DNA of 64,000 nt from a virus (IMGVR_UViG_3300031772_000002:32001-96000), one strand, 5' to 3'. Shown: positions 11,746-52,719, counted from the stretch's first letter. Translations and numbers: made by a program. Notes: generated by a model from the letters alone, not told the origin.

Positions 11746-12249
11746 TTGACTATGATTGATAACGAAAGAGAACTTGGAAAAATACAACAACAATTAGACA
11801 CTGCTGTAGAAAATATTACTTTATTACGAGATAATATTACTTTATTATTTAATAAATTAGATTCTGATTCTAAAGATACAATAAAAGAAATAGCTAAGGT
11901 TTATGAATCAGTAAATATTCATTTGCATTCATTATCTAATAAAATAGAAAATAATTCTAAGGAAACAGTTAAAGAAATTTCTAAAATTTATTCATCCCTA
12001 AATTCGCATTTGAACGTAACAAAAGAAAAAAGAGAAAATTGTGAGAAATTATTTACCTTGTTTGAAAATAGATTAAATGAACATGAAATTAAAATAGATG
12101 ATATTGATACTAACCAGCAAAGGATTGATACTAATATTGATATTTCTTTTAAAGCGGTAAAAGTTTTTGTTAGTATAATAAGTTTTATTGCTTTATTAAT
12201 AAGTATAGCATCAATGGCTATAACTTTTTTCAAGTTAATTCATAATTAA
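11746..12249 (+). CDS. Coiled-coil protein with C-terminal TM helix (holin/XhlA-like candidate)
   Basis: Heptad-rich body with one C-terminal hydrophobic helix; near the M15 peptidase. Confidence 0.4.
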   Translation: MTMIDNERELGKIQQQLDTAVENITLLRDNITLLFNKLDSDSKDTIKEIAKVYESVNIHLHSLSNKIENNSKETVKEISKIYSSLNSHLNVTKEKRENCEKLFTLFENRLNEHEIKIDDIDTNQQRIDTNIDISFKAVKVFVSIISFIALLISIASMAITFFKLIHN

Positions 12250-12308
12250 ATTTAATAACAATTTGTTTATTTTATCTTTATAGCTTATATTTATGTTGAA
12301 GGATCAGG

Positions 12309-13238
12309 ATGTCATCAGTATTAAAAAAATTTCCATTGGCTCTTATAAGTGATGCATTTATAAGTTATATACAATGGATGTTTGGAAATGAAGAGAAGGT
12401 TCCTGAATACTATAGATGGATTGCAGATGATAGGTTAAGTAAAATTCGTATATCATCACCATTTGTTATAGATAATCAAAAACCAATGAGTGCCCCATTT
12501 ATAGTAGTTGAAAGAAGTGGTTTTACATTTCAACATAATATTATAAATGATGTTAAGTCTGGATCAGAAAATACATTTGAACAAATAGAACAGGTGGTAA
12601 TATTAGATGGATTTATTAATATTATATGTGGTTCGCGGGTTGGGTCTGAGGCTTCATCATTAGCTAATTTTTTAGCTATTAATTTACAATCTGATAGACA
12701 TGGAATTATGGATGCTTTAAAATTTTTACGTAATATGAATTGTGTTGATATTGGACCTGAAACACCTGTAGTTATTAATACTGAAGTAAGAAGATATGAA
12801 GTTGTATTGCGTATTTCTGCATCAATACAACTTGGGTGGTTAAACGTATTAAGAGAGCCTGAATTATGGAATTCAGTATCTATATTTGCAGTAAATAAAG
12901 AATCTACAACATTTTCTGAAAATGGAGTGGTTGAAAAAGATAAAGATATATTGTATGATAATAGTAAAAGTTTTGGATTTGAAGAAGATGATGATCCAAG
13001 ACTAAATGAAAAAGAATTATCAAATGGATATTATTATATTAAATTTAATGAAAATCCACAGTTATATCCTATTGATAGTATAAAAGATAAAAATACATTA
13101 AAATTATTAACTCATAATGATTATAATGAACCTATACCATGGGTAGCTCCTGATAATGCTGATGATGTTAAATATGAATTATATTGGAATTGTATACATT
13201 TAACAGGCGAAATACCAAATAATAACCAAGGAGAATAG
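12309..13238 (+). CDS. Putative tail terminator/completion protein
   Basis: Directly upstream of sheath; PFIVVERSG motif. Confidence 0.5.
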   Translation: MSSVLKKFPLALISDAFISYIQWMFGNEEKVPEYYRWIADDRLSKIRISSPFVIDNQKPMSAPFIVVERSGFTFQHNIINDVKSGSENTFEQIEQVVILDGFINIICGSRVGSEASSLANFLAINLQSDRHGIMDALKFLRNMNCVDIGPETPVVINTEVRRYEVVLRISASIQLGWLNVLREPELWNSVSIFAVNKESTTFSENGVVEKDKDILYDNSKSFGFEEDDDPRLNEKELSNGYYYIKFNENPQLYPIDSIKDKNTLKLLTHNDYNEPIPWVAPDNADDVKYELYWNCIHLTGEIPNNNQGE

Positions 13239-13241
13239 AAA

Positions 13242-15803
13242 ATGGCTACAACATATCAAGGACCAAATGTTTCAGTAACTCAACAGTTTGTTACAAGTCC
13301 AGGCGCAATTGCTGTGGAAGATATTCCATCTGCAATAGTTGCTACTGCATTTGATGTGTATCTTAATGAATTGATTGGATCATCATATGGAATTAAAGAT
13401 AATGTTTTAGAATGGGGTGTTGAAAAAGTAGTATATAATAAAGATGTTATTAATAAAAGAGCATACGATTTTTATCCTGTAAAAGTAAAAGGATCTTCAC
13501 CATTTGGAAATATTGATCTTGATATAGATAGTGATAATATATCAGAAGATGGTATTTCTATTGGATATGATGATAATTATACAGTTCCAAACACAGAACA
13601 AGTAGAAGGGGAATGCGAAGGTATAATTCCTTATTATAGAAAAGAAGGGGTTTCAGGTGAAGTTAAAATTCTTGCTTCTGATCTTAAAACGATTTTAATT
13701 ACTGACGGAGCTGTAGTTACTTCAAAAATTAAAACAGGTCAAAATGTTTTTATTAATATTAGTGATGCTTGGACATTTGTAGGAACGGTTGCTAATATTA
13801 GTACCGACGAAACAAAAATAAATCTTCAAAAAGCTTATTCTGCTGCTATACTTAATGGTGAAGGAATTGTTGTTGGAGCTCATAATGTTTCGACTATTGA
13901 TATTCCTAATACATTGTATGATGTAAATGCGAAATTTGTAACTAATAAAGTTAAAATTGGAGATGTATTATATTTATCATCATTAGCAATTTCAGATTCA
14001 ATAGATACTCCAATTCAAGTAAGCGTAACTTCAGTATTAAATGAAAATACATTAAAATTTAATACTATTCCGCTTGATACAGGCAGGGTTGATTATTCAT
14101 TTACTCAATACAAGGCATTTGAACAAACTCCATTTTCTACTCTTTATTTAAGTTATTATACCATTAAAAGATATCTTGGATTTTCTCAAAACTATGGATT
14201 AAAACTCGTTGGCGACGCTTCAATTGTAGAGAAAATAAATGATTATTCATTTAGTATTACAGACACTGGCGGGTTAGCTCCAGTGCTTTCTGCAGGAGAT
14301 TTATTTTTAGTAACTACTGCCATTATAGATGATGGTGTTGACGAACGTACTATTGACAATATAAGATTATATCGTATTAATACTATTGTTAAAAGTGGTG
14401 AAGTTTATACTATCACTACAAATTCAGTTATATATAAATCGGTAGTGTCTCCTAATGATACTAAGTTTATTACCGGAGATTTTTTAACTGCATGGCATCC
14501 TAAAATTGAAAGTGATATTCTTTCTGATTTTCGTGCAGTAAGAACTGAAGAAATTGGAGTTGTAAAACGTATCGCAAGTTTGAAAGATATTACCGATGCG
14601 TGGTCAAATGATGGTAGTATTAATTTACATAATGAGTTGGCTTTTATGGCTTCTGCAGCTTTTTCTCAATCAGGACAACAAGTTTTATATGGTGTTCATG
14701 TTGATGCTACTGAAAATAATCTATCTGAACAATATGCAGAAGCTCTTGAGGAGCTTAAACTTTATGATGTATATAGCCATACATTTGGAACTACCGATGT
14801 GGGTGTTAATGCTCTTGCGGGGCCATATTGTGATGAACAGTCTGAACCTTACGAAGGTCATGAACGTATTGCCACTGTAGTTTATGATGAAAATGATATT
14901 TATTTAATGGGATCAGATGATGGCAGTATTGATGAATCTACAGGAGTTATAACTATAAATGGATCCTTTGATCCTGTTTCTGCTGGAATAACAGTTAATG
15001 ACATTGTTGAAATATATGATGTTGATGGTGAACTTGTTACAACTGTTAATGTTATTGCAACTCCAGATTCAGAAACTCCTTTTGAAATACAAACAGATTA
15101 TAGTGGAGATTCAATAACTACTCCAAGTTTTAAATTCATGAGTGGACGAAAAGATAATCAAGCAATTAAAATAGCCGCTATAGATTATGGGAATCGTAGA
15201 GTTAAAGTGTTGTGGCCAGGATGGTTTTATGGATATTATAATAGTATCCAGTATCTTCTTCCTCCATATTATATCTCTGCAGCAATTGTTGGATTGGATT
15301 CAGGAGTAGTAGTTTCTCAATCATTTACAAATATGAATTTTAGCATACCAGGAATAGCTAATATTTCATTAAAAACAAATCATTATTTTAAGAAATCTCA
15401 ACTTGATGAAATTGGAGGCAGTGGAGTTGATGTTATGATTCAGGATGTATCTCCAAGCCAATCAATTAAGTCAAGACATGATTTAACTTCAAATATGGAT
15501 GCTGTAGAATATAGAGAGCATTCTATTACTAAACAGGCGGATGTTGCTGCGAAAACATTACGATCAGCTATAAATCCATATGTTGGAAAGTATAATATTA
15601 CTAACGATTTATTGAAATTTATAGCGTCTGTATGTGGAATAGTATCAACAACACTTACCAGAAAAGGAATTTTGCAATCACTTTATGTAAAATCAATTGC
15701 TCGTGATGAAGTTATTGCTGATAAAATTAATATTGTATGCGAAGCAACTGTATTTGTTGCGGGTAATTATTATGACATTACATTGATTATTAAATCACGT
15801 TAA
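13242..15803 (+). CDS. Contractile tail sheath protein
   Basis: 853 aa; N-terminal YQGPNVSV; C-terminal sheath-like YYISAAIVG..RHDLT..EHSITKQAD..YVGKYNI. Confidence 0.8.
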   Translation: MATTYQGPNVSVTQQFVTSPGAIAVEDIPSAIVATAFDVYLNELIGSSYGIKDNVLEWGVEKVVYNKDVINKRAYDFYPVKVKGSSPFGNIDLDIDSDNISEDGISIGYDDNYTVPNTEQVEGECEGIIPYYRKEGVSGEVKILASDLKTILITDGAVVTSKIKTGQNVFINISDAWTFVGTVANISTDETKINLQKAYSAAILNGEGIVVGAHNVSTIDIPNTLYDVNAKFVTNKVKIGDVLYLSSLAISDSIDTPIQVSVTSVLNENTLKFNTIPLDTGRVDYSFTQYKAFEQTPFSTLYLSYYTIKRYLGFSQNYGLKLVGDASIVEKINDYSFSITDTGGLAPVLSAGDLFLVTTAIIDDGVDERTIDNIRLYRINTIVKSGEVYTITTNSVIYKSVVSPNDTKFITGDFLTAWHPKIESDILSDFRAVRTEEIGVVKRIASLKDITDAWSNDGSINLHNELAFMASAAFSQSGQQVLYGVHVDATENNLSEQYAEALEELKLYDVYSHTFGTTDVGVNALAGPYCDEQSEPYEGHERIATVVYDENDIYLMGSDDGSIDESTGVITINGSFDPVSAGITVNDIVEIYDVDGELVTTVNVIATPDSETPFEIQTDYSGDSITTPSFKFMSGRKDNQAIKIAAIDYGNRRVKVLWPGWFYGYYNSIQYLLPPYYISAAIVGLDSGVVVSQSFTNMNFSIPGIANISLKTNHYFKKSQLDEIGGSGVDVMIQDVSPSQSIKSRHDLTSNMDAVEYREHSITKQADVAAKTLRSAINPYVGKYNITNDLLKFIASVCGIVSTTLTRKGILQSLYVKSIARDEVIADKINIVCEATVFVAGNYYDITLIIKSR

Positions 15804-19353: not shown

Positions 19354-19815
19354 TCAATCCAATATTGCTGAACAATTTCCGAAGCACTTACCATTTTCAA
19401 TAATGTATTCATTGCATTCTTGACAAATATTTTTAACTATATATTCTTTTGCTTCTAAATCATAATAAGTAATATACTGTTCCACTAAACATCCTTTGCC
19501 ATTATAATCATAACTTGTTACTTCAAACGGATGTCCAAGTTTTTTGTTATATTTACACGATGTTTTAATTATTATTCCGTCGCCCCATTCACTTGTAAAT
19601 TCTGCATCAACTATTTCACTATCCTCTTTTTTTTTATTATTATTAGAATAGTATTTACAAATTGAAGCAATAAACTCTGGAATATAATTAATTGGAAATT
19701 GTTCTGATATTTCTTTTTTAATTATTAGTTCCAATAGTTCATTTGTTGCTTTTCTTATTGAACATATTTTGTTCAAATAGCATGCATAACAATTAAAATA
19801 TTTTTTTTCTTCCAT
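19354..19815 (-). CDS. Hypothetical Cys-rich protein
   Basis: ORF track; CxxC pairs. Confidence 0.6.
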   Translation of the reverse strand: MEEKKYFNCYACYLNKICSIRKATNELLELIIKKEISEQFPINYIPEFIASICKYYSNNNKKKEDSEIVDAEFTSEWGDGIIIKTSCKYNKKLGHPFEVTSYDYNGKGCLVEQYITYYDLEAKEYIVKNICQECNEYIIENGKCFGNCSAILD

Positions 19816-19819
19816 ACTT

Positions 19820-20089
19820 TTATCCTTTGATATATGATTTTGATTTTAGTGAATCTATTTTATTACAATTAAGATCATGAATAATGATATCAATTATAAA
19901 ATTTTTATCCATTTGATTTTTTTCTGCCAAATCAATAAAAGTATTCAGATCATAAAATGCTTTTATTCCTTTATATTCTTGGAAATACATCATAGATAAA
20001 ATAATGTCTATGGTATTAATTTCTGTACATTTTGTATATTCTAATATTTTTTTTTCTATAGTAAGAATATCATCATATCCGGGTTTCAT
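19820..20089 (-). CDS. Hypothetical protein
   Basis: AAGGA RBS. Confidence 0.6.
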   Translation of the reverse strand: MKPGYDDILTIEKKILEYTKCTEINTIDIILSMMYFQEYKGIKAFYDLNTFIDLAEKNQMDKNFIIDIIIHDLNCNKIDSLKSKSYIKG

Positions 20090-20546
20090 TTTTTTTCCTT
20101 ATATTAAATAAATTTTTTCATTACCAACTGAAATTTCGTACAACGGTTCGCTAAATGGCTGATAGTTGCCGCATTCGCTCAACCAAATCTTTAACATTCG
20201 CTATATCACAATCCTTAATATGAATATCAGAAAGTTCGTTTGCAAAAGCGTCAATTTCATTCTTTAGCTGCTGTGCGCTGTTGGCAATTTCTACAACACG
20301 TTTCAGAGCTTGCCATGCGTCCTTTAATTTTACACCATAGTTCAATTGCGGAAATTCAGATTCTATGATTGATAGTGCCTCTTTACCAGAAAGCATGGTA
20401 AACTCCTTTCAAAAAATTTAAGAGCAAAATTGAAGTTAATTTAGCAAATGTATACAGTCGGAACAGCATTGCATACTTTTTGAGTTTCATTTTTTTTCCT
20501 TATATTAAATAAATTTTTTCGTTACCAACTGAAATTTCGTACAACG
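20083..20546. repeat. 63-bp direct repeat (20083-20145 and 20484-20546, 1 mismatch)
   Basis: On the minus strand each copy starts at CGTTGTAC and runs through RBS and ATGAAAC. Confidence 0.9.
20151..20396 (-). CDS. Cassette ORF, hypothetical
   Basis: AAGGAG RBS; reads into the attC-like site at SAQQLK. Confidence 0.65.
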   Translation of the reverse strand: MLSGKEALSIIESEFPQLNYGVKLKDAWQALKRVVEIANSAQQLKNEIDAFANELSDIHIKDCDIANVKDLVERMRQLSAI

Positions 20547-20595
20547 TTCCACAAACGGGCGAAGTTCTCGCCTATAATTCTAACTCCATAGTCAA

Positions 20596-20796
20596 CTACG
20601 GGTATTTTGTCATTTGTGTGTTATCAGCTGCAAACTGGATTACCGTATCTTCCAACATGGCCTGAAACGAAGTTACGATAGTTTCAAGTTCGTTGGTTTC
20701 AAGATTATTTACATAAGAAGAAGTCATTCCATTAAGTCGTAAAACTCGTTTCATGCGAACACGCCAGCGAGCTTCATCCGAAGAATATTTAGTCAT
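20596..20796 (-). CDS. Cassette ORF, hypothetical
   Basis: AGGAAG RBS, ATG 20796; ends in site (ADNTQMTK). Confidence 0.6.
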   Translation of the reverse strand: MTKYSSDEARWRVRMKRVLRLNGMTSSYVNNLETNELETIVTSFQAMLEDTVIQFAADNTQMTKYP

Positions 20797-20872
20797 AAAA
20801 CTTCCTTTCTTGGCATCGCCTATAAACAAAAAATGCAGTTTATTGACACTAATTTAGCAAACGTATATAGTG

Positions 20873-21085
20873 CTACTTTCCTAACTGTACACAATTTCCA
20901 TTTAAACACTGATTTTTTGATCCAAGTGCATAACCGCATTCGGAACAGCATTGCATACTTTTCTGGTTATATGATACAGAATGGGCGCCATATTTAGAGT
21001 ACTGTTGCGTAAATATCAAATAACCGCACCATACTCCAAAACCAAATATTGGAATTAATAACAGAAATAATATAATGAATATCAT
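20873..21085 (-). CDS. Cassette ORF: TM helix plus Cys-rich C-terminus
   Basis: GGAGG RBS; YNQKSMQCCSECG..C..C. Confidence 0.6.
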   Translation of the reverse strand: MIFIILFLLLIPIFGFGVWCGYLIFTQQYSKYGAHSVSYNQKSMQCCSECGYALGSKNQCLNGNCVQLGK

Positions 21086-21112
21086 ATGCAGCCTCCAAAG
21101 TTTTACATAATA

Positions 21113-21141
21113 AAAAAAAGAATGAATAAAAATTCATTCTT
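21113..21141 (-). terminator. Intrinsic terminator
   Basis: AAGAATGAAT/ATTCATTCTT stem plus T tract on minus strand. Confidence 0.5.
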
Positions 21142-21149
21142 ATAGGAAG

Positions 21150-21332
21150 CTATTGAATAAGACATGAGCTTCCGTTTTTTTTTAAAAACCAAAACGACAA
21201 TTTTCCCCCTAGAAAATTAAAATCCTTTGAAGAAAAATACTTTTTATTTATGGGGTTTATCTTCCCATAAATTAAAAAGGCTTTTTTAATTAACTTATTT
21301 TTTTTTTTATTAAAAATTATTGATTTTAACAT
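21150..21332 (-). CDS. Small basic hypothetical protein
   Basis: AAGGA RBS; behind promoter 21379-21407. Confidence 0.5.
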   Translation of the reverse strand: MLKSIIFNKKKNKLIKKAFLIYGKINPINKKYFSSKDFNFLGGKLSFWFLKKNGSSCLIQ

Positions 21333-21378
21333 AAAAAAATCCTTTTAATTGTTAATACTTAATTGTATTAACATAATA

Positions 21379-21407
21379 TTTATACCATAATTTTCATAAT
21401 AATAACG
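21379..21407 (-). promoter_or_regulatory. Conserved early-type promoter
   Basis: CGTTAT-N17-TATAAA with TGG extension. Confidence 0.6.
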
Positions 21408-21429
21408 TATATAATTGTTTCTATTTATT

Positions 21430-21792
21430 TTATAAATTTGATTTTGATTTTATATCCACAATCGTTGGTTCCATATTAGGTAACGGTTTCAGTTTAGGAA
21501 CTATTTTATTTTCATCAACTGTTACAATAGGAATGCCACTTTTTGGTTCAGACCATTTGCCTATTTTAAGTAACTCATTTTTCCAAACAGCTGAAACTTC
21601 GTCAGAGCAATGAGCAACCGCATCAGCCCATGTAACACCACGTCCATATGTTGATTGAAACCATATCTGATATGGTAATGATTGTGCATTATGTGGTTGT
21701 GTGGAATTGTGTAAAGTTGCACATACTTGGCAGGTCCCTGCTTTCGATGGTAACATAAACATTGGCATAAAGTTCCAATTCCTTTCTTTCAA
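21430..21792 (-). CDS. Phage hypothetical protein (CxxC..H..PHN..TWADA.AHC)
   Basis: Metal-binding-like motif pattern; start uncertain. Confidence 0.65.
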   Translation of the reverse strand: MKERNWNFMPMFMLPSKAGTCQVCATLHNSTQPHNAQSLPYQIWFQSTYGRGVTWADAVAHCSDEVSAVWKNELLKIGKWSEPKSGIPIVTVDENKIVPKLKPLPNMEPTIVDIKSKSNL

Positions 21793-21844
21793 AATATTAA
21801 AATTTTGTTTAAACTATTTGTGAAATTCTTGATATATATGATAC

Positions 21845-22078
21845 TTAACAACCATCTTTGTCATCTTTGTAACCATACAAAGACCACATTCCCATACACA
21901 TAACTCCTTTTTTAAGTTTATCGCATATAAATGTAGATCCAACGACAGGATCAATAACAATTCTTGAAGATTTAATAATTTTGTTAATTTGTAACGTATA
22001 GACATATAACTCGGCGGTACTGTTATCCTCTAATACGGTTACGTCCAAAATACAACCGTCTTCGTGATATTCAGCCAC
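21845..22078 (-). CDS. Hypothetical protein
   Basis: GTG start with AAGGA RBS. Confidence 0.5.
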   Translation of the reverse strand: MAEYHEDGCILDVTVLEDNSTAELYVYTLQINKIIKSSRIVIDPVVGSTFICDKLKKGVMCMGMWSLYGYKDDKDGC

Positions 22079-22181
22079 AAATTATTCCTTTCTTGTGAAG
22101 GTCTATCAAATTAGAATCTTATATAATAACTCCATAAAAAAAATTTATTTCTCCAAGCGTTTGCCAAATGGATGCCGTTGC

Positions 22182-22379
22182 TCACCGAAGCGGGATACGG
22201 CAATCAGGACAATTTTTCATCCACGGATACTCTATTGACAAATCCTGATGGTTCTTCGAGCAATGGCATTCCTTTGGCTGTTGCTGGCTGTGCTGCGCTG
22301 ACTCCTTAGTGTCGTGCGCGGCAGTATCTTCGATGATGCGTCTCAATATTTTTTTACACTGATCTTTCGTAACAAGCAT
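22182..22379 (-). CDS. Cassette ORF with C-terminal CxC..CxxC
   Basis: GAGGA RBS; QQQPKECHC..CPDC lies in site 22152-22286. Confidence 0.6.
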   Translation of the reverse strand: MLVTKDQCKKILRRIIEDTAAHDTKESAQHSQQQPKECHCSKNHQDLSIEYPWMKNCPDCRIPLR

Positions 22380-22436
22380 ACATCCTCATTTTCTTGCCAC
22401 GCCTATAAATGGTTCGGCGTAGCATTGACAGCAACT

Positions 22437-22820
22437 TTATAAATGGTGCTGTTGTAGACAAGTAATAGCTGCTTTGATATGATTAACTGCGTTATCTACT
22501 TGTAAACAGCGCAAATAAGCCAATGCATCGTTTAGGTCTGCAATGGCATCCATTTGTGTTTGGTTGGTGGGTTTAAATTTTTCTTCCACTAGTAATTCCA
22601 ACAATCTCTTTTGTCCAGGAGTTACATTTATTTTATTATCTATTGCCCATCTACTAATAATTTCATATATTTTAATATGTAATTGTTGTAAGATAGATTG
22701 ACAATTTCCATCGAGACTGCGTTGAGTCTCGATGTCATACCGATATCCACACTCATCACACAATTCCCACATATCATTCCATAAATGATCTATCTCTTTT
22801 TGACAATTTCTGCATTTCAT
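22437..22820 (-). CDS. Cassette ORF, N-terminal zinc ribbon
   Basis: ATGA overlap at 22817-22820; CRNC..CDECG; PTNQTQMDAI at site arm. Confidence 0.6.
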   Translation of the reverse strand: MKCRNCQKEIDHLWNDMWELCDECGYRYDIETQRSLDGNCQSILQQLHIKIYEIISRWAIDNKINVTPGQKRLLELLVEEKFKPTNQTQMDAIADLNDALAYLRCLQVDNAVNHIKAAITCLQQHHL

Positions 22821-23278
22821 AATAAATTTCCAATCTTTTTTTTGGAACGAAACCAAGGTATTTTTTTATCTTGTGGATTGTCAGATGAGGAACTACCAGT
22901 TATAATTTTCGGATGTTTGCGATATACCTTATAACCAAGACTATTACATTTTGATACAGACAAACCTATCAAATTTACAACTGCGTCAACACCAAATTCT
23001 TTCGATACAACTATATCTCCACTAATGCATTTTCCTTTCTTAACAAGTTTCATTTCTTTTCTCAATCTCAAATCGAACCTCCTATAAAATTTATTTTTAC
23101 CGTTCGTTTTTTCTTCTACGCCACACCTTGCGTATTCTATTTTTATTAATTTAATCACACCAGAAAAAACTTCATCGTTACATTCATTTTCTACAAATGC
23201 AACTATTTCTTTTTTTGATTTACCTTTTAGTAACGTTTCTTTGTCTGTGTCAAATTCAAATGTAATCCATAATTTCAT
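22817..23278 (-). CDS. Hypothetical protein
   Basis: ATG 23278 after GGAAAAG. Confidence 0.55.
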   Translation of the reverse strand: MKLWITFEFDTDKETLLKGKSKKEIVAFVENECNDEVFSGVIKLIKIEYARCGVEEKTNGKNKFYRRFDLRLRKEMKLVKKGKCISGDIVVSKEFGVDAVVNLIGLSVSKCNSLGYKVYRKHPKIITGSSSSDNPQDKKIPWFRSKKKIGNLL

Positions 23279-23356
23279 ATTTTCTTTTCCAGCACGGATG
23301 ATGTTTATTAGAATAAAGAAGGCTCCCACACAACGTTTGACAAATGTATGCCGAGC

Positions 23357-23572
23357 CTACCCGTAAACCTCAGAATGCGACTTACCGCAACGAATACACG
23401 AACCGCTATTAAGATCGAACTGGTGCTGACATGGTATACTTTGTTTGTTGGTGGATATAAATTTTTCCACCTCAGCTTTCAGTTTTCCGTACTTCGCTAC
23501 GACATCGGCGTGTACGGATTCTGGTAACTCCAACGCAAGGCATCTAACTACCTTATCAAATTCGGCAAACAT
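23357..23572 (-). CDS. Cassette ORF with C-terminal C-x-H..CxxC
   Basis: GGAGG RBS; STNKQSIPC at site arm. Confidence 0.65.
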   Translation of the reverse strand: MFAEFDKVVRCLALELPESVHADVVAKYGKLKAEVEKFISTNKQSIPCQHQFDLNSGSCIRCGKSHSEVYG

Positions 23573-23625
23573 ATAACCTCCAGAGAAAACGGTTTTTCGC
23601 ACAACGTTTGACAAATACACGCTGT

Positions 23626-23817
23626 TTAGTCACGATGATTAGACATACAATCGACACAATAATGATACTCTGCTATTTCATCACAATCGTCGCACTTAAT
23701 AGATGGCGTACTTTGTTTGCTTAAGATGTAATTCCACGCTTCTAATGCAACGCCACGACCGTAACTTTGATTTTTGCCATACTTATCGTTAAACCACTGC
23801 TCGAAATTTTCTGCCAT
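23626..23817 (-). CDS. Cassette ORF with C-terminal CxxC..CxxC
   Basis: FEQWF..AW N-module; SKQSTP at site arm. Confidence 0.65.
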   Translation of the reverse strand: MAENFEQWFNDKYGKNQSYGRGVALEAWNYILSKQSTPSIKCDDCDEIAEYHYCVDCMSNHRD

Positions 23818-23847
23818 ATATACAACCTTTCTATATAGTTCCTTAAT

Positions 23848-24108
23848 TTATTTTTTTTTGTTTGTATTAAAGAATTTTATTTTCTCTTCTTTCTTCTCCC
23901 ACACTTTACAATTTCTATAAATACCTGAATTGTCAGAATATCTTATTATTTTTCGTTTTTTGATAATGATATAATCTGTTACACACGCAGGTAAAGATAT
24001 TAATTTAGGCAAAGGAAATTTACACTCTCCATTACATCTCGAATGTTCACCTATTGAAAAAGGAGTCCAATCCGGTTCGTATTTGCACGTTAAACATATT
24101 TTATACAT
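23848..24108 (-). CDS. Hypothetical Cys-rich protein
   Basis: CLTCKY..GEC..C..W. Confidence 0.6.
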   Translation of the reverse strand: MYKICLTCKYEPDWTPFSIGEHSRCNGECKFPLPKLISLPACVTDYIIIKKRKIIRYSDNSGIYRNCKVWEKKEEKIKFFNTNKKK

Positions 24109-24121
24109 TTTGATATCCTAT

Positions 24122-24478
24122 TTAAATTTTAATAATGTTATTTACTAAAATTTTTTTTAAAAATTTATTAATTATATCTTGATTTACTTTTTCATATTTA
24201 AAGAGATCATATAAATTAGTAGATTCACTGTTTGCAGTTGTTCTTAACTTTATTCCTTCTTTTCCTTTTATCCAATATCTACAGAAATATCCTGAATATG
24301 ATTTTGAAGTTATAAAGCCATATTCAATATACGAATCTTCTATTATATTAAATTCATCTATTGCATGGCCAGGAACATATGCAATTTGATATCCTGTTTC
24401 AATTTTTGAAAGTTGCTCTTGACTTAAACTACTTAATTTTTGCATTTGCATAACATTCATAAAAACTCCAATTTTCAT
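24122..24478 (-). CDS. Hypothetical protein
   Basis: YVPGHA..EYGFIT..FCRYW..LRTTANSE. Confidence 0.65.
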   Translation of the reverse strand: MKIGVFMNVMQMQKLSSLSQEQLSKIETGYQIAYVPGHAIDEFNIIEDSYIEYGFITSKSYSGYFCRYWIKGKEGIKLRTTANSESTNLYDLFKYEKVNQDIINKFLKKILVNNIIKI

Positions 24479-24647
24479 CCGTTCATTATAATTTAAAAAG
24501 CATAATAATTTTGTACAATGTGTGATAAATGTACTGTCGTTTTAATTTAATATCTCTTACTTTCCAATAATTTTGAATTCCAAAAAATACCTTAGTGTAA
24601 TCCGCATTGCATAACGCCGGTGTTGTGCGCTGATTTTCGCGCTTTCC

Positions 24648-24905
24648 TTAGTGTACTCCCGGCGCTCTTTCTGTTTCATCCTCCATGAAATCAAACTGAC
24701 CCATTGCTACCTTTGCCCGTTTGTACGCATCGAAACATCCGCCATAAATTCCATCTTCTTCCGCACCCCATGATTCGATACCACGGAGTAGTCCGCTTAT
24801 AATTTCCATTAATTCCGTGACCGGCATATATGCCTCGCATTTCCGATGATGCGATAACAACGGCAATCGTCCATCGCTCGCCCAATTTTTGCATTCGCAT
24901 TCCAT
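24648..24905 (-). CDS. Cassette ORF, hypothetical
   Basis: GC-rich; flanked by complementary cassette ends. Confidence 0.65.
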   Translation of the reverse strand: MECECKNWASDGRLPLLSHHRKCEAYMPVTELMEIISGLLRGIESWGAEEDGIYGGCFDAYKRAKVAMGQFDFMEDETERAPGVH

Positions 24906-24988
24906 GTTTTTTCTCTTTCTTGCGCCGGGCTATAATAGTTCTTCAGCGCGAAAATTTGCGTACAACGTATAACAAATGTACGCCGTGT

Positions 24989-25195
24989 CTACCGCTTAGG
25001 AAAACAAGTCCACGCACGAGTATAAATTGTGTCATGAATGTAAACAGTATCTGGACACGAACATGGCGTACTTTTTTTGTTGTAAGATGTGTTTTTAATT
25101 ACCTTAATGTCAGAGGCAATATCACGGATGTTTATTATCGCAGTGATACTTCCAATAAGCAAAAAGATAAATAACAAAACCGAACCTGCTCTCAT
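24989..25195 (-). CDS. Cassette ORF with N-terminal signal/TM helix
   Basis: YNKKSTPC at arm of site 24960-25085. Confidence 0.6.
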   Translation of the reverse strand: MRAGSVLLFIFLLIGSITAIINIRDIASDIKVIKNTSYNKKSTPCSCPDTVYIHDTIYTRAWTCFPKR

Positions 25196-25210
25196 ATTGC
25201 CGCCTATAAA

Positions 25211-25414
25211 TTAAAGATTTAAAACATTACTTTCTGCGGGCGCACTCTTTCTTATTGCTAAATATTCCATTAAACACCGTCTGATTGTTAACGAATATAC
25301 TGCCAACGATGGTAGTTTTATCAAATCATTTTTCATAAAATTTGTTATTGCACCAATTGATTCCTGTATATCTTCAATGGTGGTAATTTCACCAGATTTG
25401 TCTATTATATTCAT
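25211..25414 (-). CDS. Hypothetical protein
   Basis: AAGGA RBS. Confidence 0.6.
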   Translation of the reverse strand: MNIIDKSGEITTIEDIQESIGAITNFMKNDLIKLPSLAVYSLTIRRCLMEYLAIRKSAPAESNVLNL

Positions 25415-25468
25415 TTTCCTTTCCTTTCTTATGTCCGCTTATAAATAAGTTTTGCGAGTGCAAATGGT

Positions 25469-25798
25469 TTACAACGGTTTATAAACGTCTGATAGTTCGC
25501 GCAGTTCGTTGACGGCATTATCTACCGCCATAGGATCAGCGGTACGATACGAAATTTCAAGTCCATCTGCAATAGCGCGAATTTTGGCTTGCAGTTGTTG
25601 TACGTCTGTAAGCTTTTTTACATTAGCGTACCGTTCGCACTCTTCATTAAGAGCACGAGTGTTAGGCTCATCTTCTCTATAAGGACAATTTTTGTCTTCA
25701 CCGTCACAGTCGTCTCTATCAATAGCACATACTGTTTTTGATTTACTTTTTACTTCTACAATTTTAACTAAAATAGTCTCTATTTTTTTGCAAGTCAT
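25469..25798 (-). CDS. Cassette ORF, hypothetical
   Basis: VQQLQAKI at site arm; stop codon inside the distal GTTGTAA box. Confidence 0.6.
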   Translation of the reverse strand: MTCKKIETILVKIVEVKSKSKTVCAIDRDDCDGEDKNCPYREDEPNTRALNEECERYANVKKLTDVQQLQAKIRAIADGLEISYRTADPMAVDNAVNELRELSDVYKPL

Positions 25799-25840: not shown

Positions 25841-25868
25841 AGGTTCGTGTATATAAACACACGAACCT
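25841..25868 (-). terminator. Hairpin/terminator
   Basis: AGGTTCGTGT-8nt-ACACGAACCT. Confidence 0.55.
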
Positions 25869-25904: not shown

Positions 25905-26513
25905 TTAAATATTTCTCCACTTATTATCAATATATTGGAACAACTGCCTATCATTATAAGTAATGATAGGGGCTCCTTTTACTATTCTAACTAACTTATA
26001 AGTTTTATCGATTGGCATCAAATACATACCTCCGACAATACTTGCCTTAGCAGTTTCACAATTCTCAAAGAAATTAATAATTTCTTTACTCATATACCCA
26101 GATCCTTTAGTGATTTCAATCATAACAGAAAATCCAGATACTTCCCATTTATCAATTTCTTTTTTTTGTTTATTATATTTCATTATATACCCCTCTTCTT
26201 GGGAGCCGTCTCTTTCACTAAATCTTATAGTTGACGGTCTTGCAATACCCCCTTCCAATTCTTCATCAATTCGTGCATCTTGAATTTCATTGTTATTAAA
26301 TCCTGGTTTACCAGAATTTTTTAATATAGGAGTTTTAACAAATATAGGATTATTAGACTCTTTACTATCATCCTTTTCATTCTCTGTATAGGCAGGATAT
26401 TCAATAGCTTCATTAGTATTAATTTCTAAATTATTATTATTTTCTTCATTAACCAAATTTAACATTGGGTTGTTTTCTTCTAAAACACTATCTTCATTTA
26501 AATTTTCATTCAT
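25905..26513 (-). CDS. Hypothetical protein, acidic N-terminus
   Basis: AGGAG RBS. Confidence 0.7.
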   Translation of the reverse strand: MNENLNEDSVLEENNPMLNLVNEENNNNLEINTNEAIEYPAYTENEKDDSKESNNPIFVKTPILKNSGKPGFNNNEIQDARIDEELEGGIARPSTIRFSERDGSQEEGYIMKYNKQKKEIDKWEVSGFSVMIEITKGSGYMSKEIINFFENCETAKASIVGGMYLMPIDKTYKLVRIVKGAPIITYNDRQLFQYIDNKWRNI

Positions 26514-27629: not shown

Positions 27630-28781
27630 CTATTGGATAATTTGATTATCAATTTTAGAATCTTTTATATATTTACAATTAACATCAAAATATTTAATTA
27701 TATGTTGTATAATTTTTTTAGAAGCGTCTCCATATCCATACATATTATTTATATAATTTAATTTATTATTATTAATATCATTTAGAGTTAAATATATTGC
27801 ATGAATTATTTGTTCAATATGATTGGGATTAACAATTTTATTCCAACCTAATTCAACAGTTTCAGTCCATTCTGTTTCTTCACGTAAAGTAACACAGGGT
27901 ACTTTATGAAAATAAGCTTCCTTTTGTATTCCCCCAGAATCAGTAATAATTAAATTTGCATTATTCTCAAGAGATATCATATCAAAAAATCCAACTGGTT
28001 CTATAATCAAAATATTTGACATAAGTGAGGTGTAATTAAAATGATAAATCATCTTGCTGGTACGAGGATGCATAGGTAAAATTATATTAATTTTTTTTGC
28101 AAGAGTATTTAAAATTGTAAATATATTAAATAATTTATCTTTATTGTCAACATTTTCAGCCCTATGTATTGTAGCAAGAATATAATTTTTACTTTTTATA
28201 TTTAGATCGGTTAATATTTTGCTTATTTTATTTGCTTTGTTAGTATATTTTAATGCTATATCATACATTACATCTCCAACATAAAAAACATTTTTATTAA
28301 TTTTTTCTTCTTCTAAATTATTAGAAGCTAAACTGGTAGGGGTAAAAAGTAATGTAGATAATTTATCAGTAATAATTCTATTTTTTTCTTCTAGCATTCT
28401 TATATTATAACTTCTTAAACCTGCTTCAATATGTGCTATTGGAATGTTTAATTGAGATGAGATTAAAGCACCAGCTAAAGTGGAATTAGTATCTCCATAT
28501 AATAATACTAAATCTGGTTTTTCTACACAAAGAATTTCTTCTATACCTATCATCATTTTTCCAATTTGATTTCCATATGATTTTTCAATAATATTAAGAT
28601 TATATTTTGGTTTAGGTATATTAAGTTCTTCAAAAAATAATTTAGACATATTTTCATTATAATGTTGACCAGTGTTTAATATTATTTCATTAAGTAAAGA
28701 TTCTTTTTTAATTTCTTCCGATATAATTGAAGCTTTTATAAACTGAGGTCTAGTTCCAATTATAGTAATAATTTTTTTCAT
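27630..28781 (-). CDS. wecB: UDP-N-acetylglucosamine 2-epimerase (non-hydrolysing)
   Basis: GTRPQFIK, NTGQHY, YGDTNSTLAG, HIEAGLRS, TIHRAEN, TDSGGIQKEA. Confidence 0.95.
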   Translation of the reverse strand: MKKIITIIGTRPQFIKASIISEEIKKESLLNEIILNTGQHYNENMSKLFFEELNIPKPKYNLNIIEKSYGNQIGKMMIGIEEILCVEKPDLVLLYGDTNSTLAGALISSQLNIPIAHIEAGLRSYNIRMLEEKNRIITDKLSTLLFTPTSLASNNLEEEKINKNVFYVGDVMYDIALKYTNKANKISKILTDLNIKSKNYILATIHRAENVDNKDKLFNIFTILNTLAKKINIILPMHPRTSKMIYHFNYTSLMSNILIIEPVGFFDMISLENNANLIITDSGGIQKEAYFHKVPCVTLREETEWTETVELGWNKIVNPNHIEQIIHAIYLTLNDINNNKLNYINNMYGYGDASKKIIQHIIKYFDVNCKYIKDSKIDNQIIQ

Positions 28782-28968: not shown

Positions 28969-29988
28969 TTATAATCCATGTTGGATTAAATAATCATTCG
29001 ATATTACTTTAAAAGATATTTTATCATTATTATAATAAAGTCTAAACACCATTCCTTCTTGAAAATAATTTGGAGATAATTTACTTTTTGTATTAGCTAA
29101 TGATAATAATTCATCGCAAGAATGATTAAGTATAAAATTATCATTAATTATAGGAACCATTTTTAAACCTAAATTTTTTACAAATTCTATCATTTCATCA
29201 AGTAATAAATATTTACTATTTAAAATATCAAAAACATAAAAACTAAAAAAATCAACATCTTTTAATTTAAGTCTATTTTTTTGAATACCAGGCCCGGAAG
29301 TTTCTCCTTGAATTGCATAACCATTTGGAAATTTATTTGAAAGATCATATTTTTTAGCTAATATCCAAAAAATATTTTTGTTACTTTCTTTAAATTCATA
29401 ATTATGCCCACAGACCCCAAATGCATTATCATATTTATAAAAAGTTGAAGAAGTGCCATCAATTTTTTCAGTAATATAAAATCTATTGTTTTTATATAAT
29501 TCTAATAAAGGAATACAATTTTGTATTCTTTCTTCATTAGTTATAGGTATAAAACCAGGCATCCTTCCTTTTGCATCTCCAGATATACTTGCGTCTAAAG
29601 GAGGATTGTATTTATAAATATTTAAAATTTCAGACACATCGGTATTTGTTTCAATATCTTTATTAATTTCAGGAAATACACTTAATGGAAGAGCAAGCCC
29701 TTGAGATATTTGACCTTTTAATTTAATAGTTTTTAAACGATAACCTTCAACTTCTTTTCCATTATCAATTATACTTTTTTTAAGTGTAGAACCTTTATTC
29801 ATAAAACTATATTGTTCAACATTTGGAAGCAATGAATCAATTTCATGATATATACATTTATCACCAACTTTAAATTCATTTTTTCTTACAACACATTTCC
29901 ATCCTTTTATATAAACCATTTCTATATTATCTGCCCCTTCTATTGAAGTCAGATTATTAATAACCTGAATAGTAGCAAGTCTTCTCAT
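28969..29988 (-). CDS. ATP-dependent RNA ligase, Rnl2/DRB0094 family
   Basis: RRLATI..IEGADNIE..EIDS..ISQGL N-module; TEKIDGTS, QGE, EGMV, SFKVIS. Confidence 0.9.
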   Translation of the reverse strand: MRRLATIQVINNLTSIEGADNIEMVYIKGWKCVVRKNEFKVGDKCIYHEIDSLLPNVEQYSFMNKGSTLKKSIIDNGKEVEGYRLKTIKLKGQISQGLALPLSVFPEINKDIETNTDVSEILNIYKYNPPLDASISGDAKGRMPGFIPITNEERIQNCIPLLELYKNNRFYITEKIDGTSSTFYKYDNAFGVCGHNYEFKESNKNIFWILAKKYDLSNKFPNGYAIQGETSGPGIQKNRLKLKDVDFFSFYVFDILNSKYLLLDEMIEFVKNLGLKMVPIINDNFILNHSCDELLSLANTKSKLSPNYFQEGMVFRLYYNNDKISFKVISNDYLIQHGL

Positions 29989-51174: not shown

Positions 51175-52719
51175 ATGGCTAAAGAATTTGCATTAGGTCT
51201 TCCGTCAAAAACACGTTTTGATCCAATCGATCAGAAAGGTAAAACTCGTCTTGTTATTCAAGAACATGATGCAACTACCAAACATTACGATATGAGATTA
51301 AAAGATAAAGGGGTGGCTCATAGTTGGGTTATACGTTATCTTCCTGGAGAAAAGCAGAAAATTCTTGCAATACAACAACCAACACATTTGTCAAGATATA
51401 TGAATTTTGAAGGAACAATTCCTGAAGGATATGGAGCCGGAACTGTTAAAAAAATATACGATCAAAAAGTTAAAGTTCTTTCTGCTACAGATGATAAAAT
51501 TAAAATGACATTGCCTGAAGGCAATTTTACCATGATACGACCAAAAGGATTTAGTGGAAAACAATGGTTAATGATTAAAAATTCTAGTATAAAAAATCCT
51601 ATTACATCAAAACCTAAATATAAAGTTATTGCTGAACCTATTGATTATTCTGATGAAAATAAAATACTTCAGCCAAAGGTAGATGGGGCGCATAGTATTT
51701 TTGAATTAAAATCTAACGATGTAAATAATATTTACTCATATCGAATAAGTAAAAAAACTGGAAAGCCTATAGATCATACCGATCAACTTCCTCATTTAAG
51801 AGATTTAAAAATTCCTAAATCACTTGATGGAACTATATTGAGAGGTGATCTATACGGGAAAACAACAATCGGTCCATTGCCTGCCGAACAAATAAGTGGA
51901 ATTCTTAATTCAAGTGTTAATAAAAGTATTGAAAGGCAAAAACAACTCACTCGTCTTAAACCTTATATTTTTGATATTGTTAAATTTAAAGGCAAAGATG
52001 TTTCAAAAGAAGATTATTCAAATAAACTTAAAATGATGAAAGAAGTAGAATCTAAAATACCTGAAATGCGAGTTGCTGAAACTGCAACAACTCCACATGA
52101 AAAAAGAAGACTTTTTAATATGATAAAAACTCAAAGACATCCTGACACATCTGAAGGTGTAGTTGAATGGGATTTAAACGCTCCAGGAGGCTCACCAATG
52201 AAACAAAAATTCAGAGATACCCATGATGTCTATATTAAAAGTATATACCCTGCAATAGAACAGAAAAGCGGTAAAGAGAAAAAAGAAGCTGGTGGATTTG
52301 AATATAGTTTAACTCCTCGCGGTGAAATAGTTGGAAGTGTAGGAACAGGATTTACTCAAAAAAAAAGAAAAGATATGCTTGCACATCCTGAAAGTTATAT
52401 TGGAATGGTAGCACGAGTTAAATCTCCACATCAATATGAATCTGGTGCATTAAGAGCTCCGGCATTTTATACTATGGATATAGAAAAAAATTTAAATAAA
52501 GTTGCTAATATTAATAAAGGAGTTTTCATGAACAATTTATTTAATGAAAGTTTAGTTAAAGAATTTCAAAAAATAGCTATGTCTTCAAGATTCTATCAAG
52601 GCGTTTTAAAAAAAGTTAAATGGAATGATCCAAGAAGATCAACATTTGTTGGTGGATTATATAAATCTTTAGTTAAAGAAACTGGCGGATTGCCTAAAAA
52701 AGTTATTTTAAATAAATAA
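51175..52719 (+). CDS. LigD 3'-phosphoesterase domain fused to ATP-dependent DNA ligase
   Basis: QEH.A..HYD.RL..SW..H..Y..FEG.IPEGYGAG.V; KVDG adenylation motif, FDI, EGVV, K.K, OB-fold VGTGF..LRAP. Confidence 0.85.
   Translation: MAKEFALGLPSKTRFDPIDQKGKTRLVIQEHDATTKHYDMRLKDKGVAHSWVIRYLPGEKQKILAIQQPTHLSRYMNFEGTIPEGYGAGTVKKIYDQKVKVLSATDDKIKMTLPEGNFTMIRPKGFSGKQWLMIKNSSIKNPITSKPKYKVIAEPIDYSDENKILQPKVDGAHSIFELKSNDVNNIYSYRISKKTGKPIDHTDQLPHLRDLKIPKSLDGTILRGDLYGKTTIGPLPAEQISGILNSSVNKSIERQKQLTRLKPYIFDIVKFKGKDVSKEDYSNKLKMMKEVESKIPEMRVAETATTPHEKRRLFNMIKTQRHPDTSEGVVEWDLNAPGGSPMKQKFRDTHDVYIKSIYPAIEQKSGKEKKEAGGFEYSLTPRGEIVGSVGTGFTQKKRKDMLAHPESYIGMVARVKSPHQYESGALRAPAFYTMDIEKNLNKVANINKGVFMNNLFNESLVKEFQKIAMSSRFYQGVLKKVKWNDPRRSTFVGGLYKSLVKETGGLPKKVILNK

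Follow-up and report, generated by a model that had tools for sequence, protein, structure and literature searches.

Hairpin elements resembling integron attC sites within the coding sequences of a phage cassette array, with loops that encode reassorting C-terminal protein modules

The stretch of DNA analyzed here (the window; 64,000 nucleotides, IMGVR_UViG_3300031772_000002:32001-96000) covers bases 32001-96000 of a phage record that is complete, carries terminal repeats and is 164,446 bp long. Its positions 20138-25798 (minus strand) are occupied by ~18 small co-oriented genes, 11 of which carry a two-armed, hairpin-forming element; the first arm is read through by nine open reading frames (ORFs), in two frames, and the loop between the arms encodes the end of the protein. 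This array was interpreted as a set of phage accessory-gene cassettes with inter-cassette hairpins that lie inside coding sequence and would act, like integron attC sites, in structure-specific recombination, a reading to which we give an even chance. The GC content of the array was 31-36 %, compared with ~23 % in the adjoining flanks and ~27 % for the phage, and clusters of the motifs described below were confined to it in the 164-kb genome.

The elements displayed a common anatomy, consisting of an outer core pair (..CAAC / GTTG..), a co-varying inner helix of 9-17 bp and a loop of 20-110 nt, with site lengths of 60-161 nt. The proximal arm, of type ..CAAC-AAACAAAGTAYGCCATG.., was located within the ORF, and the distal arm, of type ..GGCRTACATTTGTCAAAC-GTTGT.., at the stop codon or just past it. 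The inner helix had a fixed one-base bulge, a fixed A.C pair (sense; G.T in the antisense strand) and four to five unpaired bases (AAAC) before GTTG. Five matches to the distal box CATTTGTCAAACGTTGT were found at ≤3 mismatches against 0.25 expected from shuffled sequences, and all five were on the minus strand.

A preliminary description of this stretch had claimed that the ORFs cross the proximal arm in two recurring frames, and this was confirmed by inspection of ORFs and linkers. Linkers in the first frame were ANSAQQLK, QQQPKECHC and DVQQLQAK; those in the second were STNKQSIPC, LSKQSTPS, SYNKKSTPC, SYNQKSMQC, ADNTQMTKYP and PTNQTQMDA. A single DNA arm (..ATGCCATTGC..) thereby yields DAIA or ECHC, depending on the gene. 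The stop codons were situated either within the loop or where the distal arm begins. The Cys-rich tails reported earlier for five genes (20873, 22182, 23357, 23626 and 24989) and the resemblance between the helical tails of genes 20151 and 25469 were also real, and gene 22437 was added as a third member of the latter group.

Zinc-class statistics were based on 46 unique sites retrieved with a two-arm DNA pattern, which was found on three viral and 68 metagenomic contigs. Members of the helical class were collected through protein similarity, so that their DNA was sampled without bias. The coding frame of the zinc-class loops had 3.9 Cys and 1.33 CxxC per loop, whereas the other frames had 0.9 Cys and 0.03 CxxC; of the 46 loops, five were interrupted by a stop codon in the coding frame, and 24 and 44 in the two alternative frames. 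Purifying selection, for which the preliminary description had proposed to examine the loop codons, was evident in both classes. The ratio of nonsynonymous to synonymous differences per site (pN/pS) was 0.09-0.13 for helical loops (pS 0.42-0.64 versus pN 0.055-0.059) and, from few pairs, 0.14 for four-Cys tails; related tails differed mainly at synonymous sites. Judged from sequence, the loop is ordinary coding sequence that encodes a predicted four-Cys module of ~30 aa or, together with the translated arms, a predicted two-helix module of ~40 aa. Because PHROGs and Pfam returned no family for the cassette proteins or their tails, the label "zinc ribbon" denotes the CxxC..CxxC pattern only. 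Single-sequence AlphaFold models, with mean predicted local distance difference test values of 63 and 52, gave weak support for an N-part made of helix and for a tail set apart from it by a floppy linker at the arm.

A second layer of constraint acted on the arms as nucleic acid, as indicated by frozen synonymous sites, compensating arm changes and a fixed mismatch. Taken singly, only two to four of ten window hairpins beat shuffled controls; as a set, however, cognate arms paired at -13.6 kcal/mol versus -8.8 kcal/mol for non-cognate arms (12 sites), a result reached in none of 20,000 permutations. In the zinc class, AAAGT is followed by nine bases, eight of which paired with the distal arm in 83-98 % of sites, versus 46-83 % with shuffled partners; seven of these eight positions beat all 1000 partner shuffles, and each pairing position displayed several Watson-Crick pair types among the 46 sites. 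Position 6 of the helix was A.C in 45 of the 46, though the synonymous codon CCG would make a pair. The Pro codon in the arm was CCA in 38 out of 38 cases (24/71 in the background), the Thr codon was ACG in 25 out of 27 (background 13/93), and the Asn codon before the arm was AAC in 42 out of 46 and never AAT (0/46; background AAT 58, AAC 48). The helical class provided compensatory switches, namely TTCGCGC/GCGCGAA to TACGCGC/GCGCGTA, which was seen twice, and CTGCA.AGCC to CTAAA.GGCT with matching distal changes; seven genes of this class carried two arm variants, each with matching changes in the distal arm. Three helical-class genes with unrelated N-modules shared an identical proximal arm, with a pS of 0 over 22 sites as opposed to 0.64 in the loop.

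The two strands were not equivalent. Of the two hairpins, the antisense one was the more stable at 45 of the 46 zinc-class sites and at 16 of the 17 others (61/63 in total). Besides the fixed pair, the non-Watson-Crick pairs of the sense strand comprised 23 A.C against 8 G.T (p = 0.011), and each A.C mismatch of the sense strand is a G.T wobble in the antisense strand. This better folding of the antisense strand argues against an mRNA structure.

N-modules and tails were found reassorted in nature. A profile of the helical tail retrieved 134 cluster representatives; the match ended at most six residues from the C-terminus in 138 out of 142 proteins, and the parts ahead of it fell into 106 unrelated N-part families. 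Conversely, the N-module of gene 25469 (w109) was joined, with the arms unchanged, to loops of three different classes (P0005/6, P0007 and P0016), and one loop class was encountered behind at least five different N-modules. The pairing of one N-module with different C-modules, which the preliminary description had put forward as a sign of shuffling, thus occurs, and neither constant co-occurrence of N- and C-parts nor tails devoid of coding constraint were observed. In the zinc class, four tails each stood behind two to three unrelated N-modules, identical four-Cys tails followed unrelated N-modules, and an N-end ..VLAQQTNN preceded four different tails; 50 proteins fell into 40 tail clusters, with loops that were not mutually alignable. 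The pairs behind these zinc-class swaps were checked by eye at the DNA level, the first N-module clustering having been too loose (cluster N02). In P0004, the N-module of gene 22437 was joined to another hairpin, with the switch directly after ..CCACCAAC. The unit common to different contexts was the hairpin itself: downstream identity stopped at GTTG in every case, whereas upstream it stopped 0 to about 50 nt ahead of the AAC core, often with a common linker of eight codons coming first.

Cassette change was also seen among close relatives. Contigs L035, L036 and L114, found by protein look-ups, belong to the same phage lineage (flanks 97-99 % identical), and the sites marked the boundaries of indels and replacements between them and the window. 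Synteny with L035 and L036 was lost after GTTGT at 24962; a whole cassette (23346-23600) was present in the window and absent from both, its junction (23601/23345) lying inside two 17-nt boxes; and synteny with L035 and L114 ended at AAAG|TTG, position 22435. All of these breaks were located at G|TTG. The cassette TTGTATGCCATAAACC.., which follows the 22435 break in L035, follows an unrelated zinc-type hairpin in L097, with the same TTG start. The cassette of ORF 24648-24905 was replaced in L035 by 778 nt of other cassettes. In L114, 1.5 kb stood in place of the 22182 cassette, and units 20596, 20383 and 20151 were replaced as well; moreover, the first 83 codons of the resident gene 19354-19815 had taken the place of the N-module of gene 20873 and were fused to its tail (L114, 860-1185), the fusion partners sharing only ..AAAC (~4 nt) at the joint.

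Two further observations concerned the junctions and the array edge. Two junctions (window 22154-22162 and L035:5133-5141) read ..G-C-TTG.. instead of ..G-TTG.., with the extra C exactly at the presumed crossover. A contig of 17.6 kb, 97 % identical to the window (L034, IMGVR_UViG_3300037137_001381), ended at window position 20116, the edge of the array, which suggests that assemblies break there owing to a heterogeneous population.

If the hairpin is the object recombined, the folded antisense element would function in structure-specific recombination much as attC does: whole cassettes would be moved by exchange at the GTTG core, and exchange at the CAAC core, within a flexible linker, would join any N-module to any hairpin-encoded tail. 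Candidate enzymes would be a host integron-type integrase, an enzyme of the phage that has escaped recognition, or a strand-annealing recombinase that exploits the frozen arms. More tentatively, and possible to our mind without being probable, the array may belong to a phage-specific system that operates without an integron integrase, in which the antisense hairpin would be the crossover site while the sense strand encodes linker and C-terminal domain; more than 100 N-modules and dozens of zinc-type or helical tails would then be combined in a manner resembling exon shuffling, by a recombinase not yet recognized.

Several results weigh against a dedicated, attC-like site. Most of the evidence came from sites that were found by DNA pattern and are mutually related. 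No PF00589 tyrosine recombinase was detected in the complete 164-kb phage, whereas the control genomes were all matched, and none was present among 70 neighboring proteins of related arrays. A two-arm scan of the genomes of 185,579 species gave chance-like matches only, and no host integron with this type of site; five bacterial contigs recovered by the two-arm pattern (including Crocinitomicaceae purH, Psychromonas and Chitinophaga) were treated as chance, being long host genes without the stop or the Cys pattern. Canonical attC sites are imperfect hairpins of ~55-141 nt, conserved in structure and not in sequence, with outer cores R'' = RYYYAAC and R' = GTTRRRY and extra-helical bases on the R''-L'' arm. 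Here, the AAC and GTT triplets were kept in nearly all sites and R'' heptamers seldom fitted RYYYAAC; R' was GTTG(T/G)RY, its position 5 being T in most window sites (GTTGTAC, GTTGTGC, GTTGTGT), and both the bulge (GGCGTAC-A-TTTG) and the four to five unpaired bases AAAC were on the distal L'-R' arm. Junctions on the N-side did not fall at one bond and were scattered from about -50 to +16 nt around the AAC core, as expected for homologous exchange in a conserved patch, and breakpoints at the end of a conserved box are equally expected from such exchange; one L114 junction (22171) was located within the distal arm. Because some of the N-side junctions were found 8-50 nt before the AAC core, strict site specificity does not hold for the shuffling. 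The earlier proposal that the recombination site doubles as a protein-domain joint was largely supported, both checks that it named having come out in its favor: modules do reassort at the arm (P0004, L114), at sites that are not canonical attC and with some N-side junctions off the core, and the joint would be either the site of a dedicated recombinase or a patch of homology.

The side of the bulge, the R' sequence, the scattered N-side junctions and the lack of an integrase or a bacterial site make homologous exchange via the frozen arms a serious rival, doubtful as we consider it to be. The arms would here act as short homology patches, comparable to the early-promoter stem-loop elements (PeSLs) of T4-like phages, general or relaxed homologous recombination through ERF/Red-type annealing proteins would swap their contents, and the hairpin would be kept for some other reason. 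Besides the scatter of N-side junctions and the junction inside a distal arm, this explanation is favored by the eight-codon linker (EEKFTSTN, EENGSSHN, EALKPSHN and others) shared by unrelated N-modules, by the genes for ERF, Sipho_Gp157, RusA and NinG adjoining related arrays, and by documented PeSL-mediated swaps in phage hyperplastic regions (PMC2839356, PMC4122927). However, a co-varying helix, a fixed mismatch and an antisense-strand bias are all unnecessary for homology patches, and the L114 fusion had only its few bases in common with its partner. Furthermore, proximal and distal arms stay matched, so that crossovers rarely fall between them, although most of the identical sequence is located there, and no promoter or terminator signature accompanied the sites.

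It is unlikely that the hairpin is a small non-autonomous mobile element, similar to Rickettsia palindromic elements (RPEs) or ORF-bearing MITEs (miniature inverted-repeat transposable elements), which would insert at AAC/GTT near gene 3' ends and spare its target gene by an open frame. The conserved unit is indeed exactly the hairpin from CAAC to GTTG, with both the upstream N-modules and the downstream cassettes varying; AAC flanks the element on both sides (..CAAC[..]AAAC GTTG), and a filled and an almost empty copy coexist (20844-20972 and 20431-20490). The phage also possesses an IS200/IS605 TnpA, a Y1 transposase, which acts on single-stranded hairpins. Translated MITE and RPE fusions are known (PMC2229807). 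On the other hand, MITE copies share their interior whereas the loops are mutually unrelated, as reflected in their many tail clusters, the loops are under purifying selection at the protein level, and no TnpA was present on other array contigs. Elsewhere in the phage record (G000:C1), the Y1 transposase of IS200/IS605 type was found beside TnpB (145808-147394), a serine recombinase beside TnpB in an IS607-like arrangement (12176-13613), and a third TnpB at 1197-1388. No link was found between the Y1 transposase and the array, and neither transposase, serine recombinase nor TnpB was seen with other arrays.

A role of the hairpin in gene expression (mRNA stability, RNase processing or translational coupling in a polycistronic early transcript), with mosaicism being incidental, is quite improbable. 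The sites do occur at gene ends in a single operon-like array, in which ribosome sites are strong (TTATAGGAGG) and internal promoters are absent, and a terminating ribosome would melt the distal arm; yet the helix of the sense strand carries the A.C excess and the fixed A.C mismatch and is nearly always the less stable, and the breakpoints at the cores would be left unexplained. Promoter-like sites numbered 34, against 29.7 expected by chance, and none was tied to the boxes. A terminator reading of the hairpins was rejected since T-runs were absent from the sites; a diversity-generating retroelement was rejected too, neither a template repeat nor adenine-specific variation being seen, and Rfam gave no match in the window. 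Finally, an ordinary integron fragment taken up from a host chromosome and carried along passively, a situation reported for 17 phages, is very improbable: the architecture would fit (co-oriented small ORFs, AAC..GTT cores, sites of 60-160 nt, GC content above that of the phage), and phage-borne attC clusters that IntI1 can recombine are on record (PMC9892861), but the site was met on about 60 metagenomic and 3 viral contigs and in no bacterial genome among the 185,579 species, adjoining genes are phage genes, relatives of the cassette proteins are phage-only, and both the R' consensus and the side of the bulge are non-canonical.

The individual elements, all on the minus strand, are described from the start of the array onwards. 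The 109-aa gene (ORF 25469-25798) carried its element at 25469..25603, with both arms inside the reading frame (QQLQAKIRAIA / ELRELSD); loop and arms together make up its predicted two-helix tail, and the stop codon overlaps GTTGTAA. The element of the 68-aa membrane-anchored gene (ORF 24989-25195), at 24960..25085, encodes a Cys-rich tail and was the best-paired zinc-class site of the window. The 85-aa gene (ORF 24648-24905) was followed by a collapsed, untranslated mini-site (24592..24628). Hairpin elements were then found at 23599..23721 in the 63-aa gene (ORF 23626-23817), whose tail displayed CDDC..CVDC, at 23328..23453 in the 71-aa gene (ORF 23357-23572), at 22429..22569 in the 127-aa gene (ORF 22437-22820), which has a helical tail, and at 22151..22286 in the 65-aa gene (ORF 22182-22379), where the arm is read in the other frame (ECHC) ahead of a Cys-rich tail. 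A variant element (20844..20972) in the 70-aa gene (ORF 20873-21085) encodes a tail with CCSEC..C-x4-C; its empty copy (20431..20490) has the same two arms and a 19-nt loop without the zinc-ribbon coding insert. Between them, the 66-aa gene (ORF 20596-20796) carried a short-loop element (20539..20626), its stop codon located six codons beyond the core. The final site of the array (20138..20286), in the 81-aa gene (ORF 20151-20396), encodes a helical tail of another loop class. Beyond it, the AT-rich resident 153-aa gene (19354..19815, minus strand) is of like build, with a YNKK linker followed by a Cys-rich tail, and may be an old, ameliorated member of the family.

From 17 to 39 kb of the window, every gene was on the minus strand. 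A strong terminator-like hairpin precedes the start of the array: positions 25841-25868, just upstream of the first array gene, form a perfect 12-bp stem, followed on either strand by a T-run. This is probably a terminator that acts in both directions and delimits the array as its own unit. Three over-long ORF calls were given corrected starts at ATG codons preceded by a Shine-Dalgarno sequence (23572, 22820 and 20796). The motif TTTATAGGCG or TTATAGGAGG was located 5-25 nt before cassette start codons (window 25445, 25210, 22409, 20826 and 20578) and at many loci in unrelated phages; it is probably a common ribosome-binding region, and no sigma-70-like promoter accompanied it. A 96-nt leader, beginning GTTGTACGAAATTTCAG and running through the ribosome site to ATGAAAC, was present in two copies 401 nt apart (20064-20159, minus strand, and 20465-20560); the coding sequence behind each copy differs, as though a unit had entered just past the start codon. 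The phage encodes a baseplate wedge protein, an RNA ligase and a LigD-like ligase. Window positions 27630-28781, 28969-29988 and 51175-52719 specify, respectively, a UDP-GlcNAc 2-epimerase-like protein, an RNA ligase with a PHA02142 OB domain, and a LigD-type phosphoesterase with an ATP-dependent ligase. The label T4-like was dropped for this phage, as there was no match to Gp23, for which the control was silent too, and none to RecA/UvsX.

As to distribution, the 17-mer box gave 29 single matches in IMG/VR, about the number expected by chance, two of which (L007 and L013) were real arrays. The array had no blastn match among 50,697 phage records, and the flanking gene 25905-26513 had none in viral contigs. 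Phage contigs with the site had 27-41 % GC and were of different types; related arrays of two to nine sites were present in phages of 36-41 % GC, next to genes for RusA, Dam, ERF, Sipho_Gp157, NinG, Lar, Tad3 and terminase. Anti-defense or nin-region neighbors, namely Lar restriction alleviation protein, the Thoeris inhibitor Tad3, Dam with N6/N4 methylases, NinG and RusA, were seen at L121:170-406, L122:127-558 and in members of alignment A2; in view of these neighbors, the cassette proteins may act early in infection against host defenses.

Were the hairpin the crossover site, domain shuffling in phages would be channeled by a site within coding sequence, rather than being left solely by illegitimate joins made at random. 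It would then be possible to divide hundreds of small ORFan phage proteins, many of them adjoining anti-defense genes (Tad3, Lar, Dam), into an N-module and a standard tail, and integron-like cassette logic would extend to phages lacking an integrase. The elements would offer a clean natural case of one set of bases that specifies both a protein and a DNA structure and contains a fixed G.T/A.C pair open to synonymous mutation; they may also lead to a new structure-specific recombinase and to recombination sites that can be translated.

Among known systems, integrons and their CALINs, clusters of attC sites that lack an integrase and need none in cis, are similar in several respects. Both display co-oriented, small, promoterless genes, each followed by an imperfect inverted repeat with AAC..GTT cores, a variable loop, and a structure that is kept rather than a sequence and that, by computed stability in the present sites, folds best on the antisense strand. 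Cassettes are gained and lost at G|TT in either case, although homologous exchange in the box would look alike. In contrast to integrons, ORFs cross the site here, the loop is a selected protein module, exchange takes place at the proximal core too, and the search revealed neither an integrase in the complete phage nor a bacterial integron bearing such a site. Virulent phages can carry CALINs, and of six phage attC sites assayed, IntI1 recombined five (Qi et al. 2023, PMC9892861). In integrons, recombination of attC is ~1000 times more efficient for the bottom strand than for the top one (PMC13108822), a rule with which the antisense fold agrees in orientation, as far as computed fold stability goes. 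Integron integrases also use GWT secondary sites, which the L114 joint resembles (bioRxiv 10.1101/2022.09.11.507474).

PeSLs of T4-like phages are likewise short conserved motifs; in the variable regions of large virulent phages, they delimit genes that are swapped or present as indels, in an integron-like modular shuffling that is free of integrase (Arbiol 2010, PMC2839356; Comeau 2014, PMC4122927). They are, however, intergenic terminator-plus-promoter units exchanged by homologous recombination (PMC2839356, PMC4122927), whereas promoter and terminator signatures are absent here, the helix encloses 20-110 nt of coding sequence, and junctions are also found inside genes. Rickettsia RPEs and ORF-bearing MITEs share with the present elements that they are hairpin-forming DNA elements (100-170 bp) lying in frame inside genes, and they are translated (PMC2229807), as the present elements are predicted to be; RPE and MITE copies have one interior in common and are scattered over genes, whereas only the arms are common here and diverse, selected interiors are placed at gene 3' ends in arrays. 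CALINs in phages (PMC9892861) and translated palindromic repeats (PMC2229807) are thus already published. Hairpin sites whose loops are selected, swappable protein domains were not described in the literature searched. In the pilE/pilS system of Neisseria, one expressed locus receives sequence from silent donor copies by RecA-dependent conversion. There, too, variable coding segments stand between conserved segments that guide exchange and yield combinatorial variants; in the phage array, by contrast, every copy is a different gene, read as expressed, and the bracketing segments form a hairpin.

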